A stretch of 64,000 bases of DNA, taken from the sequence record OQ845958.1; one strand, written 5' to 3'. Source of the DNA: Escherichia phage pEC-M719-6WT.2. The first letter of the stretch is position 1. Each line of letters opens with the position of its first letter. Position numbers and translations under genes: made by a program. Of this stretch, positions 4,437-42,589 are shown piece after piece. The notes beneath the pieces are model-generated. The model was not told the origin of the DNA and did not search any database. It saw only the letters and a list, made by a program, of their open reading frames with translations.

Positions 4437-4647
4437 TGAAAACTGCATTAGTCTATACCGAAAAGTTAAACGGTGACAAGGTCTGGAAACTTCTTATCAA
4501 AGGAAGCCCTACTGACCAGTTTATGGCCACCTGTGTGGGATTGTATACTCGTCCTACTAAAAAGATGATTCGTCAATTTAAACGGTTACACCGCGCGTTT
4601 TATAAGATTTAATAAATACCCTTATCTAATAATGGTAAGGGTTTATT

Positions 4648-5121
4648 ATGTTGTTGACTGGCAAATTATACAAAGAAGAAAAACAAAAACTTTATGATGC
4701 ACAAGCTGGTAAGTGTCCAATTTGCCACCGTGATTTGGACTCCGATGTTCAGGCCAACCATCTTGACCATGACCACGAATTGAACGGGCCAAAAGCCGGT
4801 AAGGTTCGCGGGTTACTATGCAATCTGTGCAATGGGACAGAAGGACAAATGAAGCATAAGTTCAGCCGTTCGGGTCTGAAAAGTCGCGATGTTGACTACC
4901 TGGAATGGTTAGAGAGTTTGCTTGTCTATCTGAAATCTGATTATACCGAAAACAATATTCACCCCAATTTTGTAACAGACAAAGCCAAAGAGTTCGGTCG
5001 TCTGGGGAAAGAAGAAATGATTCGGGAAATGCTTTTGAATGGTATGACTTATAATGAATCTGACACCAAAACACAATTAATGGCTTCATTTAAGAAGCAG
5101 CTTAGAAAGAGTTTAAAATGA
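4648..5121 (+). CDS. 49: endonuclease VII (Holliday junction resolvase)
   Basis: 157 aa, MLLTGKLYKEEKQK...HLDHDHELNGPKAGKVRGLLCNLCN; near-identical to remembered T4 gp49. Confidence 0.92.
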   Translation: MLLTGKLYKEEKQKLYDAQAGKCPICHRDLDSDVQANHLDHDHELNGPKAGKVRGLLCNLCNGTEGQMKHKFSRSGLKSRDVDYLEWLESLLVYLKSDYTENNIHPNFVTDKAKEFGRLGKEEMIREMLLNGMTYNESDTKTQLMASFKKQLRKSLK

Positions 5122-26923: not shown

Positions 26924-27217
26924 ATGAAAAAGTTATTAATCGCGGCAATTCTTACCGTAGCATCATGTGGTACAGCTCCAGTTACTGCTGGACTTGATAA
27001 AGACCTTTGTGAGTGGTCTATGACTGCTGACCAGACTGATGTTGAACATCAGATTTATGCTGATATTATGAACATAACTAAACGTGACCGCCCTGATATG
27101 GTTAAAGAAGTATCTGACAAATTGACTTCTGGTGACGTTATGCAGTATAACTATGTTCTGTATTGCGATGCTTCATTTGACAATAGCAAAATTGTTCAAT
27201 GGGTTACAGGTGAATAA
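26924..27217 (+). CDS. sp: Spackle-like periplasmic protein
   Basis: 97 aa with signal peptide MKKLLIAAILTVASC; size and position (61.3-like) fit T4 spackle. Confidence 0.55.
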   Translation: MKKLLIAAILTVASCGTAPVTAGLDKDLCEWSMTADQTDVEHQIYADIMNITKRDRPDMVKEVSDKLTSGDVMQYNYVLYCDASFDNSKIVQWVTGE

Positions 27218-27218
27218 A

Positions 27219-27656
27219 ATGATTAACAGAAATTTAGTTATCAAAAAACTTCGCTGTAAAAATCCAAATGCACAGGCATACCGGGTGTTTTGGAGCGACG
27301 AAATTCAATACCTGGGTTATTTTCTTGTTGATAGTGATGATAGAATTACGTTTGCTCATAAGCTTCTTAACAAAGAATTAAACCATTGGCAAGAACTTAT
27401 TGCAGTCAAGTCTAAATTATTTTCGCGCAATACAATGCACCAATTGGTTTATTTTTTCGCTGATGGTATTCCTGACAAGGTTGAGTTTGATGGGTTTGAA
27501 TTTAAAGACATCAATCCTAACAATGAATTGAATGACAGTATTGTTAATATGGGTATTCCTGGTAAGTACATCAAAAACAGTCTTTTGAAAATTCTGGAAA
27601 CCCCTGTATATTCAGTTGACGACCAAATTTTTAATGCCTTTATGAAGCGAGATTAA
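27219..27656 (+). CDS. hypothetical protein (paralogous C-terminus)
   Basis: Ends ...DDQIFNAFMKRD, same tail as next ORF. Confidence 0.45.
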   Translation: MINRNLVIKKLRCKNPNAQAYRVFWSDEIQYLGYFLVDSDDRITFAHKLLNKELNHWQELIAVKSKLFSRNTMHQLVYFFADGIPDKVEFDGFEFKDINPNNELNDSIVNMGIPGKYIKNSLLKILETPVYSVDDQIFNAFMKRD

Positions 27657-27657
27657 T

Positions 27658-28026
27658 ATGTATATTCAAAGCGATTTGTCTTATCTGAATTTTGAATTAG
27701 TTAAAAATAATGATGGTAATGCTCATTATGAATTCCGCGAGCCTCGTTATAATCAGGCGATTGGTTATATTATTGTTAAAGATGGCGTTATCATAAAGGC
27801 TCGCTCATTTATGGTAATGAATGGGCCTTATGAAGATACTCGTGGCTATCCATTTGATAAAAAGAATGTACGCGATTGTGCAGCGTGGATAACCGGAAAT
27901 CCTGAAATTGGGGTCATGCTATCTACTGAAGCAAATGACATTCTGGATGCTGGCTGGGTTAAATCTCAAGAACCGCCTACTGATATTGATGACCAGATTT
28001 TTAATGCTTTCATGAAGCGAGGTTAA
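27658..28026 (+). CDS. hypothetical protein (paralogous C-terminus)
   Basis: Ends ...DDQIFNAFMKRG. Confidence 0.45.
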   Translation: MYIQSDLSYLNFELVKNNDGNAHYEFREPRYNQAIGYIIVKDGVIIKARSFMVMNGPYEDTRGYPFDKKNVRDCAAWITGNPEIGVMLSTEANDILDAGWVKSQEPPTDIDDQIFNAFMKRG

Positions 28027-28027
28027 T

Positions 28028-28219
28028 ATGACTGCAATGTGTACGGGCTCTAAGATTTCGGTCTTCCAGATTTTTGAAGAATATGAAATCGTGTCGCAAG
28101 ACCAAGAAGCAATCCATGTTATCGCTGATGATGGTGTTACCTGGATTATTCCGTTGTATCATGAAGACACCTATGAAGTGACTGATGCAAATGGCGATAA
28201 AGCTATCTTCGTTGTATAA
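28028..28219 (+). CDS. hypothetical acidic protein
   Basis: 63-aa ORF. Confidence 0.35.
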   Translation: MTAMCTGSKISVFQIFEEYEIVSQDQEAIHVIADDGVTWIIPLYHEDTYEVTDANGDKAIFVV

Positions 28220-28222
28220 ATA
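28215..28222 (+). promoter_or_regulatory. late promoter TATAAATA
   Basis: Exact T4 late consensus 18 nt upstream of ATG-28240. Confidence 0.45.
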
Positions 28223-28239
28223 GCGGAAAGGGGGGTGTT

Positions 28240-28407
28240 ATGAAAACATTCAAAGATTTTATCAATGAAGATATGGTTGCCGGTGATGCAGGTGGAAACC
28301 CAACTAATATCGCAACAGGTACCACTTCCGGGGCAGTTGTCAATAAAGGTCCTGAACAAATCCCATCAAAAAAGCGTAAGAATAAAGACGATAAACCTAC
28401 AGTATAA
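28240..28407 (+). CDS. small Gly/Thr-rich protein with basic tail, late-promoter driven
   Basis: 55-aa ORF with SD AAGGGGGG; followed by hairpin ATGGTCC-tccg-GGACCAT. Confidence 0.35.
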   Translation: MKTFKDFINEDMVAGDAGGNPTNIATGTTSGAVVNKGPEQIPSKKRKNKDDKPTV

Positions 28408-28439
28408 TGGTCCTCCGGGACCATTGAAATGAGGAAACT

Positions 28440-29468
28440 ATGTCATATATTGATAGAGAATTTGCAGTCAAAGCTTTATCGTATCAACCACGTTACAGAG
28501 AAGTCACCGGGAGCACATTTAAGGCAAACTGTCGTTGTAAGGTTTGTGGTGACTCCCAGAAAGATTCGCACAAGGCTCGATTCTGGGCGTATACCAATCC
28601 ATCTGATGGTGCGGTTTACGTGAAATGTTTTAACTGTGACTACTCCACGCATATAAGCAAATACATAAAAGAGTTTGAGCCGGATTTGCACCGGGAATAT
28701 ATGGTTGAGAAGTACAAGGAAAACGCCTTCGGTCGACAACGTAATGAAGTTGCAGAAGCTCCGAAAGAACCAGAAAAAACTCCGGTTATTGAAGAGCTTG
28801 CTTTTTGTGAAAGAATTGATACTTTACCAGAAGAGCATCCGATAGTTAAGTATGTAAAAAGTCGGTGTATTCCGAGCAATGTTTGGAACCGGTTATGGTT
28901 TACAAACAAATGGCCTGCATTAGTTAACTCCGTTAATCCTGGGACGTATAAGAATGAAACGAATGAACCACGCTTGGTTATTCCTATCTTCAACGGCAAA
29001 AAAGAAATCGAATCTTTCCAAGGACGAGCTCTTCGCAAAGATGCACCACAAAAATATATCACAATCAAAGCTCACCCAGAAGCTTCCAAAGTCTATGGCG
29101 TAGACAAGATTGATGAGCGCAAGCGCGTGTGGGTAATGGAAGGTCCGATTGATAGTTTGTTTATCCCTAACAGCATTGCGATAACTGGTGGAACATTAGC
29201 ATTGGAAGCCGTTCCTTATGCTGAAACCCGAGTATGGGTAATGGACAACGAGCCAAGACATCCGGATACGATTAAACGTATGAAGAAGCTCGTTGAAGCG
29301 GGTGAAGCCGTTATGTTCTGGGACAATGCACCATGGCATACGAAAGACATAAATGAGATGGTTAAATCGGAGGGCGCAACCCCTGAACAAATCGAATCAT
29401 ATATGGCCGATAACATTGCTCAAGGGTTGATGGCGAGAATGCGACTTTCGAAGTACGCAAAAGTTTAG
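28440..29468 (+). CDS. 61: DNA primase gp61
   Basis: 342 aa; N-terminal zinc ribbon (CRCKVCGDS...CFNCDY); same length as T4 gp61. Confidence 0.92.
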   Translation: MSYIDREFAVKALSYQPRYREVTGSTFKANCRCKVCGDSQKDSHKARFWAYTNPSDGAVYVKCFNCDYSTHISKYIKEFEPDLHREYMVEKYKENAFGRQRNEVAEAPKEPEKTPVIEELAFCERIDTLPEEHPIVKYVKSRCIPSNVWNRLWFTNKWPALVNSVNPGTYKNETNEPRLVIPIFNGKKEIESFQGRALRKDAPQKYITIKAHPEASKVYGVDKIDERKRVWVMEGPIDSLFIPNSIAITGGTLALEAVPYAETRVWVMDNEPRHPDTIKRMKKLVEAGEAVMFWDNAPWHTKDINEMVKSEGATPEQIESYMADNIAQGLMARMRLSKYAKV

Positions 29469-30663: not shown

Positions 30664-30668
30664 TTATA

Positions 30669-40485: not shown

Positions 40486-42318
40486 ATGATGATTAATAAT
40501 GAAATTAAAGTACTCTCGGACGTCGAGCATATCAAAAAACGTTCCGGGATGTATATTGGTTCCAGTTCAAATGAAGCGCATGAGCGATTCTTGTTTGGTG
40601 AATATAAGTCCGTAAGCTATGTTCCTGGTATTGTAAAACTGATTGATGAAATTATCGATAACTCTGTTGATGAAGCAATTCGCACCAGTTTTAAATTTGC
40701 CAATAAAATTGATGTCCAAATTAAAGATAATCAGATTTCGGTTTCCGATAATGGCCGTGGTATTCCACAAGCAATGGTTACAGACCAAAACGGTGAACAA
40801 ATCCCTGGCCCGGTTGCAGCATGGACTATTCCAAAAGCAGGTGGTAACTTCGGTGATGATGCTGAACGTAAAACTGGTGGGATGAATGGCGTCGGGTCTT
40901 CTCTGACCAATATTTTCTCTGTATTGTTCACCGGGATTACTGCCGACGGCACAAATGAAATCACCGTTAACTGCTCCAATGGTATGGAAAACAAAGGTTG
41001 GTCTACCAAGAAATCTAAGGGTAAAGGTACAACTGTTATTTTTGTTCCGGACTTCAGTCACTTTGAAGAAAATAGCCTGTCCCAGATTTATCTGGATATT
41101 ACATTGGACCGTCTGCAGACTCTTGCGGTTGTTTATCCGGATATTCAGTTTACCTTTAATGGTAAAAAGGTTGATGGCAATTTCAAGAAGTTCGCCAAGC
41201 AATTCGGAACCGAAGTTGTTATCCAGGAAACTGATACAGTATCGATGGCCTTTACGACTAGCCCGGATGGTTTCCGCCAGTTGACTTATGTCAACAACAT
41301 TCATACAAAGAATGGTGGGCACCACGTTGAATGTGTTATGGATGATATCTGTGAACATCTTCAGCCAGCCATTAAACGCAAATATAAAGGCATTGAGGTG
41401 ACAAAGGCACGAGTTAAAGAATGCCTCACCATGCTTATGTTCATTCGCGATATGAGCAACATGCGATTTGATTCCCAGACTAAGGAGCGATTGACTTCTC
41501 CGGCTGGTGAAATTCGAAATCACATTAAGATTGATGCCAAGAAAATCGCACAAGCTATTCTGAAAAATGAACCACTGATTATGCCGATTGTTGAAGCTGC
41601 ATTAGCCCGTAAATTGGCTGCAGAGAAAGCAGCAGAGACCAAGGCGAATAAGAAAGCTTCAAAGGCCAAGGTGCAAAAGCATATCAAGGCCAACGAATGG
41701 GGCAATGATAAGCTGGAAACGACTCTATTCCTGACCGAAGGTGATTCTGCAACCGGTCCATTTATCAAGGTCCGCGACCGTGAATTACAAGGTGCTTATC
41801 CGTTACGTGGTAAGTTCAAAAACACATGGGGTCTGAAAGCTGTTGACGTTATGAAGAACGCCGAAGCCTTTGATGTGTGTGCGATTACTGGTTTAACGAT
41901 TGGACAACCGGCCGAGAATATGAATTACCGAAACATTGCTATCATGACAGATGCGGATGTGGATGGTGTCGGTAGTATCTATCCATCGTTATTGGCGTTT
42001 TTCAGTAACTGGCCAGAGCTGTTCCATGAAGGACGAATTCGCTTTGTGAAAACTCCTGTTATTATTGCGCAGCTCAAAGATAAACAAGAATGGTTCTATT
42101 CTCTTCCTGACTATGAAGAAGCTAAGGATAAACTTCCGAAGCACACCATCCGATATATCAAGGGGCTTGGTTCTCTGGAAGATGCCGAGTACAAACGCGT
42201 ATTGCTCGAACCAGTATTCGAAGTTGTTCAATTGCCCGACAACTGGAAAGAACTGTTCGAAATGCTCTTCGGTAAAGATTCCCAGCAGCGTAAAGATTGG
42301 ATGAATGCGACACTATAA
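40486..42318 (+). CDS. 39: DNA topoisomerase II large subunit gp39 (GyrB-like), fused 39+60 form
   Basis: 610 aa single ORF with GHKL ATPase and TOPRIM regions; no separate gene 60. Confidence 0.93.
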   Translation: MMINNEIKVLSDVEHIKKRSGMYIGSSSNEAHERFLFGEYKSVSYVPGIVKLIDEIIDNSVDEAIRTSFKFANKIDVQIKDNQISVSDNGRGIPQAMVTDQNGEQIPGPVAAWTIPKAGGNFGDDAERKTGGMNGVGSSLTNIFSVLFTGITADGTNEITVNCSNGMENKGWSTKKSKGKGTTVIFVPDFSHFEENSLSQIYLDITLDRLQTLAVVYPDIQFTFNGKKVDGNFKKFAKQFGTEVVIQETDTVSMAFTTSPDGFRQLTYVNNIHTKNGGHHVECVMDDICEHLQPAIKRKYKGIEVTKARVKECLTMLMFIRDMSNMRFDSQTKERLTSPAGEIRNHIKIDAKKIAQAILKNEPLIMPIVEAALARKLAAEKAAETKANKKASKAKVQKHIKANEWGNDKLETTLFLTEGDSATGPFIKVRDRELQGAYPLRGKFKNTWGLKAVDVMKNAEAFDVCAITGLTIGQPAENMNYRNIAIMTDADVDGVGSIYPSLLAFFSNWPELFHEGRIRFVKTPVIIAQLKDKQEWFYSLPDYEEAKDKLPKHTIRYIKGLGSLEDAEYKRVLLEPVFEVVQLPDNWKELFEMLFGKDSQQRKDWMNATL

Positions 42319-42321
42319 ATA
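42314..42321 (+). promoter_or_regulatory. late promoter TATAAATA overlapping gp39 stop
   Basis: Exact consensus, then palindrome ACGGGAGAAT/ATTCTCCCGT and SD AGGAGAAG. Confidence 0.45.
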
Positions 42322-42360
42322 GATACGGGAGAATATTCTCCCGTCTTATAGGAGAAGTCC

Positions 42361-42513
42361 ATGAAAAAGTGGTGGGTTACGTTGTCAAATGGCGAATACG
42401 GTTATCTGTGGGCCGATACTAAACCTCTGTTTGCATCCTTTGTCACCATTATGTGCGAGACTTGGGATGGCGAATACTATACCGCATATGGGCAAGTCTA
42501 TAAAGTTGAGTAG
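42361..42513 (+). CDS. small Trp/Tyr-rich protein, late-promoter driven
   Basis: 50-aa ORF flanked by TATAAATA and intrinsic terminator. Confidence 0.35.
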   Translation: MKKWWVTLSNGEYGYLWADTKPLFASFVTIMCETWDGEYYTAYGQVYKVE

Positions 42514-42516
42514 CCA

Positions 42517-42539
42517 AAAGGACCTTCGGGTCCTTTTTT
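42517..42539 (+). terminator. intrinsic terminator AAAGGACC-ttcg-GGTCCTTT + T-run
   Basis: 8-bp stem, UUCG loop, TTTTTT. Confidence 0.65.
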
Positions 42540-42589
42540 ATTATGTACAAGCCACAAAAATTGCGTTAAGATATCCTTGAGGTGAACAT

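Follow-up and report, generated by a model that had tools for sequence, protein, structure and literature searches.

Predicted late promoters precede two conserved mini-genes in the early region of a T4-like phage, one of which resembles the cleavage site and N-arm of the major capsid protein

Introduction

Why do exact copies of the late-promoter consensus stand before two very small open reading frames (ORFs) in the middle of early gene clusters of a T4-like phage, and what might such genes encode? We addressed this question in a window of 64,000 nucleotides from Escherichia phage pEC-M719-6WT.2 (OQ845958.1), a T4-like myovirus of the genus Gaprivervirus that shares 96–99% identity with Escherichia phages EAWsc9, ECML-359 and UPEC07, and about 93% with VR20 and SP18. 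The early and replication genes of the window form a cluster on the + strand in the order 41, dmd, sp, 61.x, 61, 56, soc, ..., 39, rIIA, and beyond about 54 kb the − strand carries late genes. It is ordinary for T4-like phages to have late promoters ahead of small genes within their early regions. For the two ORFs considered here, a preliminary description had proposed self-contained late units that could encode virion-associated or late regulatory peptides.

Results

Late-promoter boxes in front of two mini-genes

The first box, an exact match to TATAAATA, is located on the + strand at 28215–28222 with a predicted late start near 28228, and overlaps the TAA stop (28217–28219) of an upstream 63-aa ORF. 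The second, equally exact and also on the + strand, spans 42314–42321 with a predicted late start near 42327, and overlaps the TAA stop (42316–42318) of topoisomerase gene 39. The box-to-ATG distance is 17 nt for the first ORF (ORF1, gene 61.1), close to the 18 nt at the holin t box, and 39 nt for the second (ORF2). Both ORFs have early-type flanks: ORF1 has 61.2-like ORFs on one side and primase gene 61 on the other, and ORF2 lies between gene 39 and the rIIA cluster. The preliminary description was therefore accurate in putting exact boxes before the two ORFs, in its coordinates, and in setting both ORFs within early clusters.

In terms of raw numbers, TATAAATA is not enriched in the window (5 copies seen versus 5.4 expected from shuffles). 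As this count gave no excess, we replaced it with a positional test. All five exact boxes stand 8–45 nt before a same-strand Shine-Dalgarno sequence (SD), ATG and ORF of at least 45 aa, a placement for which 4.4% of all window positions qualify (binomial P = 1.6e-7 for 5/5 boxes), and none of the five falls inside a coding region of the window. Of the other three boxes, one each stands before soc, holin t and a tail-fibre gene. The T4-type late box spans −13 to −6, with A or T at −13 being usual outside T4 (Nolan 2006). Both mini-gene boxes are exact copies of this gp55-type sequence, and both are in sense orientation shortly 5′ of an SD and start codon and outside coding sequence.

Both boxes are also kept at the orthologous place in diverged relatives. 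The ORF2 box, in the form (T/A/G)ATAAATA, holds its position in all 13 genomes compared, which represent 10 genera. The 61.1 box was found in about five lineages and at least four distinct upstream contexts. Gaprivervirus, Dhakavirus and Kanagawavirus-like phages have kept it, and in the Kanagawavirus-like ones another gene lies upstream; in Acinetobacter phages it is spelled CATAAATA and follows other upstream genes; and at one further locus (L025) TATAAATA comes directly after a terminator and is followed by a long form of 61.1. In RB69-like and PM2 phages the equivalent site reads ATTAAATA, and T4, RB16 and AS-zj have no late box before 61.1.

It could be argued that the boxes are non-functional, with AT-rich stop contexts (xTA-TAA-ATA) spelling the consensus by chance and both genes being expressed by read-through from early or middle promoters. 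The chance-level box count would fit, as would the TAA stop of the upstream gene contained in both boxes, the ATTAAATA variant of RB69-like and PM2 phages and the missing box at T4 61.1. Chance spelling does not, however, account for five of five exact boxes in promoter position with none in coding sequence, nor for the three that sit before classic late genes. Moreover, the 61.1 box is kept despite different upstream genes and stop contexts, and the ORF2 box is kept in 10 genera while the sequence of the adjacent hairpin varies. We consider non-functional boxes very unlikely. The comparative evidence makes working late promoters at both 61.1 and ORF2 very probable; each mini-gene has its own predicted gp55-type late promoter, overlapping the stop codon of the early gene before it.

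ORF2 forms a closed cassette with a covarying 5′ hairpin

ORF2 (42361–42513, + strand) encodes a small, 50-aa predicted beta protein that matches phrog_4369 (E = 4e-29). Its neighbouring elements were as the preliminary description had them, with a palindrome before the gene and a strong terminator after it. The 5′ hairpin, a perfect palindrome of 8 bp with an AUAU loop, occupies 42325–42344 on the + strand between the box and the SD (GGAG, 42351–42354, + strand), which lies outside it; the leader region folds at −16.4 kcal/mol (z = −3.4). Downstream, an intrinsic terminator at 42516–42543 (+ strand) was called by terminator scan and fold, and consists of a GGACC-UUCG-GGUCC stem reaching to 42537 and the U-run TTTTTTATT.

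A tblastn search with ORF2 retrieved 307 phage records, comprising Escherichia, Klebsiella, Enterobacter, Serratia, Yersinia, Citrobacter, Erwinia and Aeromonas phages. Throughout the 13 genomes that we examined, ORF2 directly follows gene 39 and lies upstream of rIIA, and in each of them the stop codon of gene 39 is contained in the box and is followed by a hairpin, GGAG or GGAA, and ATG. In all 13, the ORF2 stop is immediately followed by a GC-rich stem and a T-run. The protein alignment has nine invariant columns, and the codon changes show the same pattern of purifying selection as those of 61.1 (see below).

MAFFT with RNAalifold yielded no consensus structure for the ORF2 leader, because the stems differ in sequence among genomes. 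We therefore counted loop-anchored pairs and used an arm-swap control. The stems form 8.9 contiguous bp on average with their own arms, versus 1.16 bp when 3′ arms are exchanged among genomes, and 3–5 pair types occur at each stem position, indicating covariation. The hairpin begins no more than 4 nt past the box, and in three genomes it overlaps the last 1–3 box bases. Applying the rule of box + 6 (Nolan 2006), the predicted late start falls inside the 5′ arm in 13/13 genomes, so that on the predicted late RNA the hairpin would be shortened. The full hairpin would form only on read-through RNA from gene 39.

The T4 genes e, soc, 49 and I-TevI are known for late promoters in early regions combined with hairpin control of early read-through RNA. 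ORF2 resembles this type in having a late box directly 5′ of a stable hairpin and, as in the class of elements that sequester the ribosome-binding site (RBS), a predicted late start inside the 5′ arm. It differs in that neither SD nor start codon is held in the hairpin: the stem ends 12–19 nt before the ATG in 13/13 genomes, leaving the SD free. In the window, the ORF2 hairpin ends 6 nt before the SD, whereas the hairpin of gene 49 (4611–4650, with AATAAATA at 4611) includes the SD in its 3′ arm. As the SD is left free, the ORF2 hairpin is not a classic RBS-sequestration element. An Rfam scan of the whole window matched no family.

The best of five AlphaFold2 models of the ORF2 protein has four beta strands and a pLDDT of 92, in a single-sequence prediction (a word-index homologue search gave one protein) whose five models scatter from 52 to 92. 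Compared with the PDB, this fold has no significant neighbour, with only weak generic matches to small beta-sheet folds of the Sm/Hfq-like kind (E ≥ 0.3, TM about 0.4). We also considered ORF2 as the counterpart of T4 rIIA.1 and rejected this assignment, since there is no similarity and rIIA.1 is a separate gene further downstream. Taken together, box, covarying hairpin, SD, ORF and terminator make ORF2 a closed and insulated cassette with predicted late activity.

ORF1 is gene 61.1 and is not closed in the window

ORF1 (28240–28407, + strand; 55 aa) is the orthologue of T4 gene 61.1, both by sequence and by its position beside primase. It shares 86% identity with T4 gp61.1 (UniProt P39228, 54 aa) over aa 1–42, matches phrog_1823 (E = 1e-32), and its counterparts in SP18 and VR7 are annotated as gp61.1. 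It is thus not a new gene but an already known conserved hypothetical one, which was named among the conserved ORFs without known function when five T4-like genomes were compared with T4 (Nolan et al. 2006). Relative to T4, its codons show 18 synonymous and 6 non-synonymous differences (1 and 23 in the other frames), and 61.1 is under purifying selection in the stated frame. Both mini-ORFs are real conserved genes. Pfam and NCBIfam gave no match for 61.1, its long form or ORF2, and a PHROGs search of the three returned only families without assigned function.

A G-rich SD region, GGGGGG, precedes 61.1 at 28230–28235 (+ strand), and no hairpin lies between box and SD. The hairpin that the preliminary description placed after the gene is present at 28405–28426 (+ strand; 9 bp, UCCG loop, −14.4 kcal/mol, z = −2.4), between 61.1 and gene 61. 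The latter (28440–29468, + strand) is a listed ORF, is annotated as DNA primase in SP18, EAWsc9 and T4, and is the conserved downstream neighbour of 61.1. T4 and the window agree in the position of 61.1 directly upstream of gene 61, but in T4 the ATG of 61.1 overlaps the stop of 61.2 and there is neither a late box nor a downstream hairpin, whereas in the window the 63-aa ORF (phrog_3249) is inserted between a 61.2-like gene and 61.1, which comes with a TATAAATA of its own and a hairpin on its 3′ side. Box-bearing lineages also carry a hairpin 3′ of 61.1, with differing stem sequences (Dhaka, PM2, Kanagawa and Acinetobacter phages compared).

The 28405–28426 hairpin lacks a U-run, and the terminator scan did not call it; the next terminator on the + strand follows soc, at 30668. 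Transcripts could therefore read through into gene 61, and 61.1 is not a closed unit here. A Rho-independent terminator, that is a GC-rich stem-loop with a U-run, follows ORF2 and does not follow 61.1, and of the two proposed self-contained late units only ORF2 stands as such.

This arrangement suggests that the box at 28215 could be a working late promoter for the downstream block (primase 61, dCTPase 56 and onwards), with 61.1 as merely its first cistron and an early-type accessory gene without a role in the head, as in T4. The distant terminator favours this reading, and so do the universal synteny of 61.1 and 61 and T4 61.1 itself, which has no late box and an early RNA. In Kanagawavirus-like and Acinetobacter phages, however, the hairpin between the boxed 61.1 and gene 61 carries a T-run, and with a terminator in this position the box would serve 61.1 alone. 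The order at L025, in which a terminator precedes TATAAATA and the long form of 61.1, also counts against it, as does the fact that soc has a late box of its own. A promoter for the downstream block would, in addition, leave the likeness of gp61.1 to gp23 and to the capsid-targeting sequence (CTS) unexplained. In our assessment the downstream block is an unlikely explanation for the box.

gp61.1 resembles the maturation site and N-arm of gp23

Some database sources name the 61.1 family ‘major capsid domain-containing protein’, and because of this name we compared gp61.1 with gp23, T4's major capsid protein. The two align over gp23 aa 57–101 with 44% identity in 45 residues (E = 2e-10). In gp23 the aligned segment reads QAFGSFLTE up to the Glu65/Ala66 maturation site and AEIGGDHGYNATNIAAGQTSGAVTQIGPAVMGMVRR after it; in gp61.1 it reads KTFKDFINE up to the position of the gp23 maturation site and DMVAGDAGGNPTNIATGTTSGAVVNKGPEQIPSKKR after it. 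Both proteins thus have F-[LI]-x-E at the cleavage site, together with the pattern GD.G.N.TNIA.G.TSGAV...GP.

Using tblastn with gp61.1, we found 2,920 places in 1,517 phage records, two per genome in most. Where the best-scoring of the listed places was gene 23, it is annotated as a major capsid or head protein gene. A profile of the 61.1 family searched against 1.8 billion proteins brought up no full-length gp23 at E ≤ 1e-3, and the homology of gp61.1 and gp23 therefore rests on the pairwise and tblastn alignments over about 45 residues. When 61.1 was compared with the gp23 of the same phage, this stretch of gp23 was nearly invariant in close genera, and the motif was missing from distant gp23s. 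Among the papers covered by our literature search, none connects 61.1 with gp23 or the CTS.

Maturation cleavage removes 65 residues from gp23 (PMC9546572). In the unexpanded head, the adjoining aa 66–105 are disordered, point inward and probably touch the scaffolding core; after expansion they form an arm and the N-fist, make inter-capsomer contacts and contribute part of the Soc site (PMC9546572). Head-length mutations (A66D, A94V and G97S) map to this region (PMC9546572). AlphaFold predicts gp61.1 alone to be disordered (pLDDT 62), in likeness to the disordered gp23 segment of the unexpanded head. At 55 aa versus 521 aa, gp61.1 lacks the HK97-fold body of gp23 and therefore cannot be a shell subunit; its match is confined to gp23 aa 57–101, it has no Pfam capsid domain, and it does not belong to the gp23 family as defined by a complete HK97-fold body.

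The N-terminus of gp61.1 resembles the capsid-targeting sequence

The layout of gp61.1 comprises a CTS-like and protease-site-like stretch at aa 1–10 (MKTFKDFINE), a gp23 N-arm-like stretch at aa 11–42 and a Lys-rich tail at aa 43–55. Its first ten residues are close to those of the T4 internal proteins (IPs), namely MKTYQEFIAE in IPII and IPIII and the beginning MKTFKEF of IPI, and close to MKTYQEFI[NT]E, with which ip-cluster genes of VR7 begin. Searching the window together with 100 kb of its sister phage VR7, we found starts of the form MK[TS][FY]x[ED][FY] only in 61.1 and in four genes of two ip clusters, which are ip6, ip10 and two adjacent hypothetical ORFs of VR7.

For IPIII, its first 10 residues are enough for packaging, with residues 4 and 7 acting in targeting and residues 8 and 10 in processing (Mullaney & Black 1996, via PMC9026906). 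At all four of these positions gp61.1 agrees: it has the aromatic targeting residues F4 and F7 (Y4 and F7 in IPIII; F4 and F7 in IPI) and the processing residues I8, where Ile or Leu is expected, and E10. The gp23 site follows the same pattern at P7, P4, P3 and P1, with F59, F62, L63 and E65. Because of this shared pattern at the defined CTS positions, we infer that the CTS, the N-terminus of gp61.1 and the gp23 site are one motif family.

Like the IP class, gp61.1 has a CTS-like decapeptide and then a basic tail. It differs from IPI, IPII and IPIII in being far smaller and in having its gene beside primase rather than in the ip clusters; past the predicted cleavage site, gp61.1 is a copy of gp23, whereas the IPs have a unique cargo domain. 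The real ip genes of VR7 and T4 have sigma-70-type upstream regions and no late boxes, and a late box is thus no hallmark of the IP class.

Short and long forms of the 61.1 family

Our profile search of 1.84 billion representatives returned 56 clusters, among them 20 short forms (≤75 aa) and 29 long forms (100–260 aa). Long-form ‘61.1’ proteins of 149–254 aa (phrog_2086) are present in RB16, Acinetobacter phage Abraxas, Aeromonas phage AS-zj and loci L023–L027. They consist of an N-domain of about 110 aa without Pfam match, and have the gp23-like module at or near the C-terminus; unlike the IPs and the short forms, they have no N-terminal CTS. Primase comes immediately after the long-form gene in Abraxas and AS-zj; in RB16 one small ORF separates the two. 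We did not find the long-form N-domain encoded elsewhere in the window, the T4 loci compared or VR7.

Of 30 family representatives that could be assessed, 25 have the motif [LIVMFY]-x-E immediately before the MVAGD core, versus a background of 4.7%; this count includes long forms, where the site is internal, and as the 30 representatives are related, the nominal P-value overstates the significance.

A possible path of gp61.1 into the prohead

Building upon these likenesses, we tentatively favour a scheme for gp61.1 in three steps. The peptide would be made late in infection, would join the prohead scaffolding core via its targeting or N-arm-like sequence, and would then be cut after Glu10 by the prohead protease gp21, with a peptide of about 45 residues staying with the head or DNA. 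In this scheme, gp21 cleavage would be expected to yield the peptide DMVAGDAGGNPTNIATGTTSGAVVNK, with Asp11 as its N-terminus. We infer late transcription, prohead entry and gp21 cleavage of gp61.1 from its sequence and that of its relatives. Uptake into the prohead followed by gp21 cleavage is the fate that we consider most likely, although we put it at slightly less than an even chance; the same tentative weight applies to the whole picture in which this fate is joined to an origin of gp61.1 as a miniature paralogue of the capsid-protein cleavage-site and N-arm region with a CTS-like N-terminus. For the preliminary description this means that its observation is confirmed and its interpretation partly supported: the proposed virion-associated peptide gains unexpected support for ORF1, given the resemblance to the gp23 cleavage site and N-arm and to the CTS. 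No function could be assigned to ORF2.

Expression data come from T4. In a T4 time course, 61.1 is classed as ‘early’ for RNA and ‘NA’ for protein (PMC9697503, supplementary file 4), and gp61.1 of T4, an orthologue without late box, was undetected in the whole-cell proteome time course (PMC9697503). IPI to IPIII are early for RNA and late for protein in the same data (PMC9697503, supplementary file 4), and the early RNA class of 61.1 is thus compatible with head cargo. Nevertheless, T4 gives no positive support for gp61.1 as head cargo, and 61.1 is not named in the papers on T4 head composition that we consulted. In the genomes compared, 61.1 is always beside primase in the replication cluster and never with head genes. 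The lack of a U-run after the 61.1 hairpin also counts against a role in the head, since the box may mainly serve downstream genes.

The likeness to gp23 could also be read as mimicry, with gp61.1 acting as a free-standing, cytoplasmic imitation of the gp23 cleavage site and N-arm that is not packaged as cargo. Such a mimic could be a competitive substrate or regulator of gp21, or could compete with the gp23 N-arm for docking to scaffold, neighbouring capsomers or Soc. Several of the observations above are in keeping with this idea. The likeness spans both the cleavage site and the arm, and the gp23 region concerned touches the core, holds head-length mutations and helps to build the Soc site (PMC9546572). 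In the long forms the module is C-terminal in a larger protein that has no CTS at its N-terminus, and the disorder predicted for gp61.1 would be expected of a docking mimic. The position of 61.1 among early accessory and anti-defence genes (dmd, sp), together with its early RNA in T4, would suit a pre-emptive decoy. On the other hand, the Gol/Lit determinant of gp23 lies mostly downstream of the stretch copied in gp61.1, and our analysis identified neither a host sensor nor a phage partner of gp23 aa 57–101. The recurrent gain of late boxes fits co-expression with head proteins, but fits packaging equally well, and mimicry leaves unexplained why the short forms retain exactly the CTS targeting positions 4 and 7. 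We regard cytoplasmic mimicry as doubtful, and are similarly reserved about its extension to the whole family, according to which gp61.1 would be an ancient capsid-mimic module across Straboviridae that tunes head maturation or decoys capsid-sensing host systems. Prohead uptake and cleavage by gp21 thus remains our tentative choice for gp61.1.

Discussion

Our analysis of two mini-genes in the early region of a Gaprivervirus genome points to different answers for the two loci. The ORF2 cassette is a clean, deeply conserved and insulated unit of predicted late expression within an early cluster, and its covarying 5′ hairpin suggests a role that differs from the classic scheme of RBS sequestration. 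Gene 61.1, one of the few conserved ORFs without known function across the T4-like phages compared, receives a new and specific hypothesis, namely that it may encode a head-associated peptide or a mimic of the capsid arm that is processed by the prohead protease. If this is true, a virus assembly pathway that ranks among the best studied would gain a component or regulator, and there would be a hint at the origin of the CTS, which is used for packaging foreign proteins into T4 heads.

Relatives of gene 61.1 and of its upstream neighbours

Larger proteins carrying a gp23-like 61.1 module at or near the C-terminus (long-form 61.1; phrog_2086; 149–254 aa) were found in RB16 (L125), Abraxas (L126), AS-zj (L127) and the comparison loci L023–L027. 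Their conserved N-domain of ~110 aa (Y..RFIRL..K.F.EW.A...IID..G.V.K.P.T.EE..Y.PFH) had no match in Pfam and was not found in the window, in the T4 loci compared or in VR7. The best match of the 61.1 profile search, P0023 (1,126 aa), aligned in 18 separate short stretches at profile positions 29–48 and is probably a repeat protein unrelated to 61.1. Within the window, two adjacent plus-strand ORFs (27132–27656 and 27658–28026) share a C-terminus, ...DDQIFNAFMKR[D/G], that resembles the T4 gp61.2 C-terminus, and judged by their sequences they look like tandem 61.2 paralogues.

Sequences upstream of ip and ip-cluster genes

The MKTYQEFI[NT]E start, which resembles a capsid-targeting sequence, occurs in four genes of the two ip-gene clusters of the sister phage VR7: ip6, ip10 and two hypothetical ORFs next to them, 127c and 153c (minus strand; 7320, 7648, 18129 and 18462 in L043, VR7 50–100 kb). 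Sigma-70-like TATAAT boxes, and no late boxes, lie ≤70 nt upstream of these four genes, and no late box was found within the same distance upstream of T4 ipII and ipIII.

Hairpins and late boxes elsewhere in the window

The hairpin 5′ of the 50-aa ORF2 (42325–42344) is a perfect palindrome; in the terminator scan it also scored as terminator-like on the minus strand, where ATCTATTTAT follows the stem.

On the plus strand, AATAAATA and a hairpin precede gene 49, which encodes endonuclease VII (4611–4650). The hairpin, CCCTTATCT...GGTAAGGG, lies directly 3′ of AATAAATA, and the gene 49 Shine–Dalgarno sequence (ATG at 4648) falls inside its 3′ arm. In the classic T4 arrangement, the ribosome-binding site is hidden in early read-through RNA, and late RNA starts within the hairpin. 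The leader described here, with its box, hairpin and Shine–Dalgarno sequence in the 3′ arm, is an instance of that arrangement.

Between primase gene 61 and dCTPase gene 56, antisense to the early genes, lies a hydrophobic 65-aa minus-strand ORF (MLKLSSLIQAIKGSRKRTILVLSILCLVLL...; 29784–29587), annotated in EAWsc9 as a 'holin family protein' and with no match in NCBIfam. A CATAAATA box on the same strand (29808–29801) stands 16 nt 5′ of its ATG, with a GGAGG Shine–Dalgarno sequence in between. The ORF and its box are a candidate for a third late mini-gene of the window.
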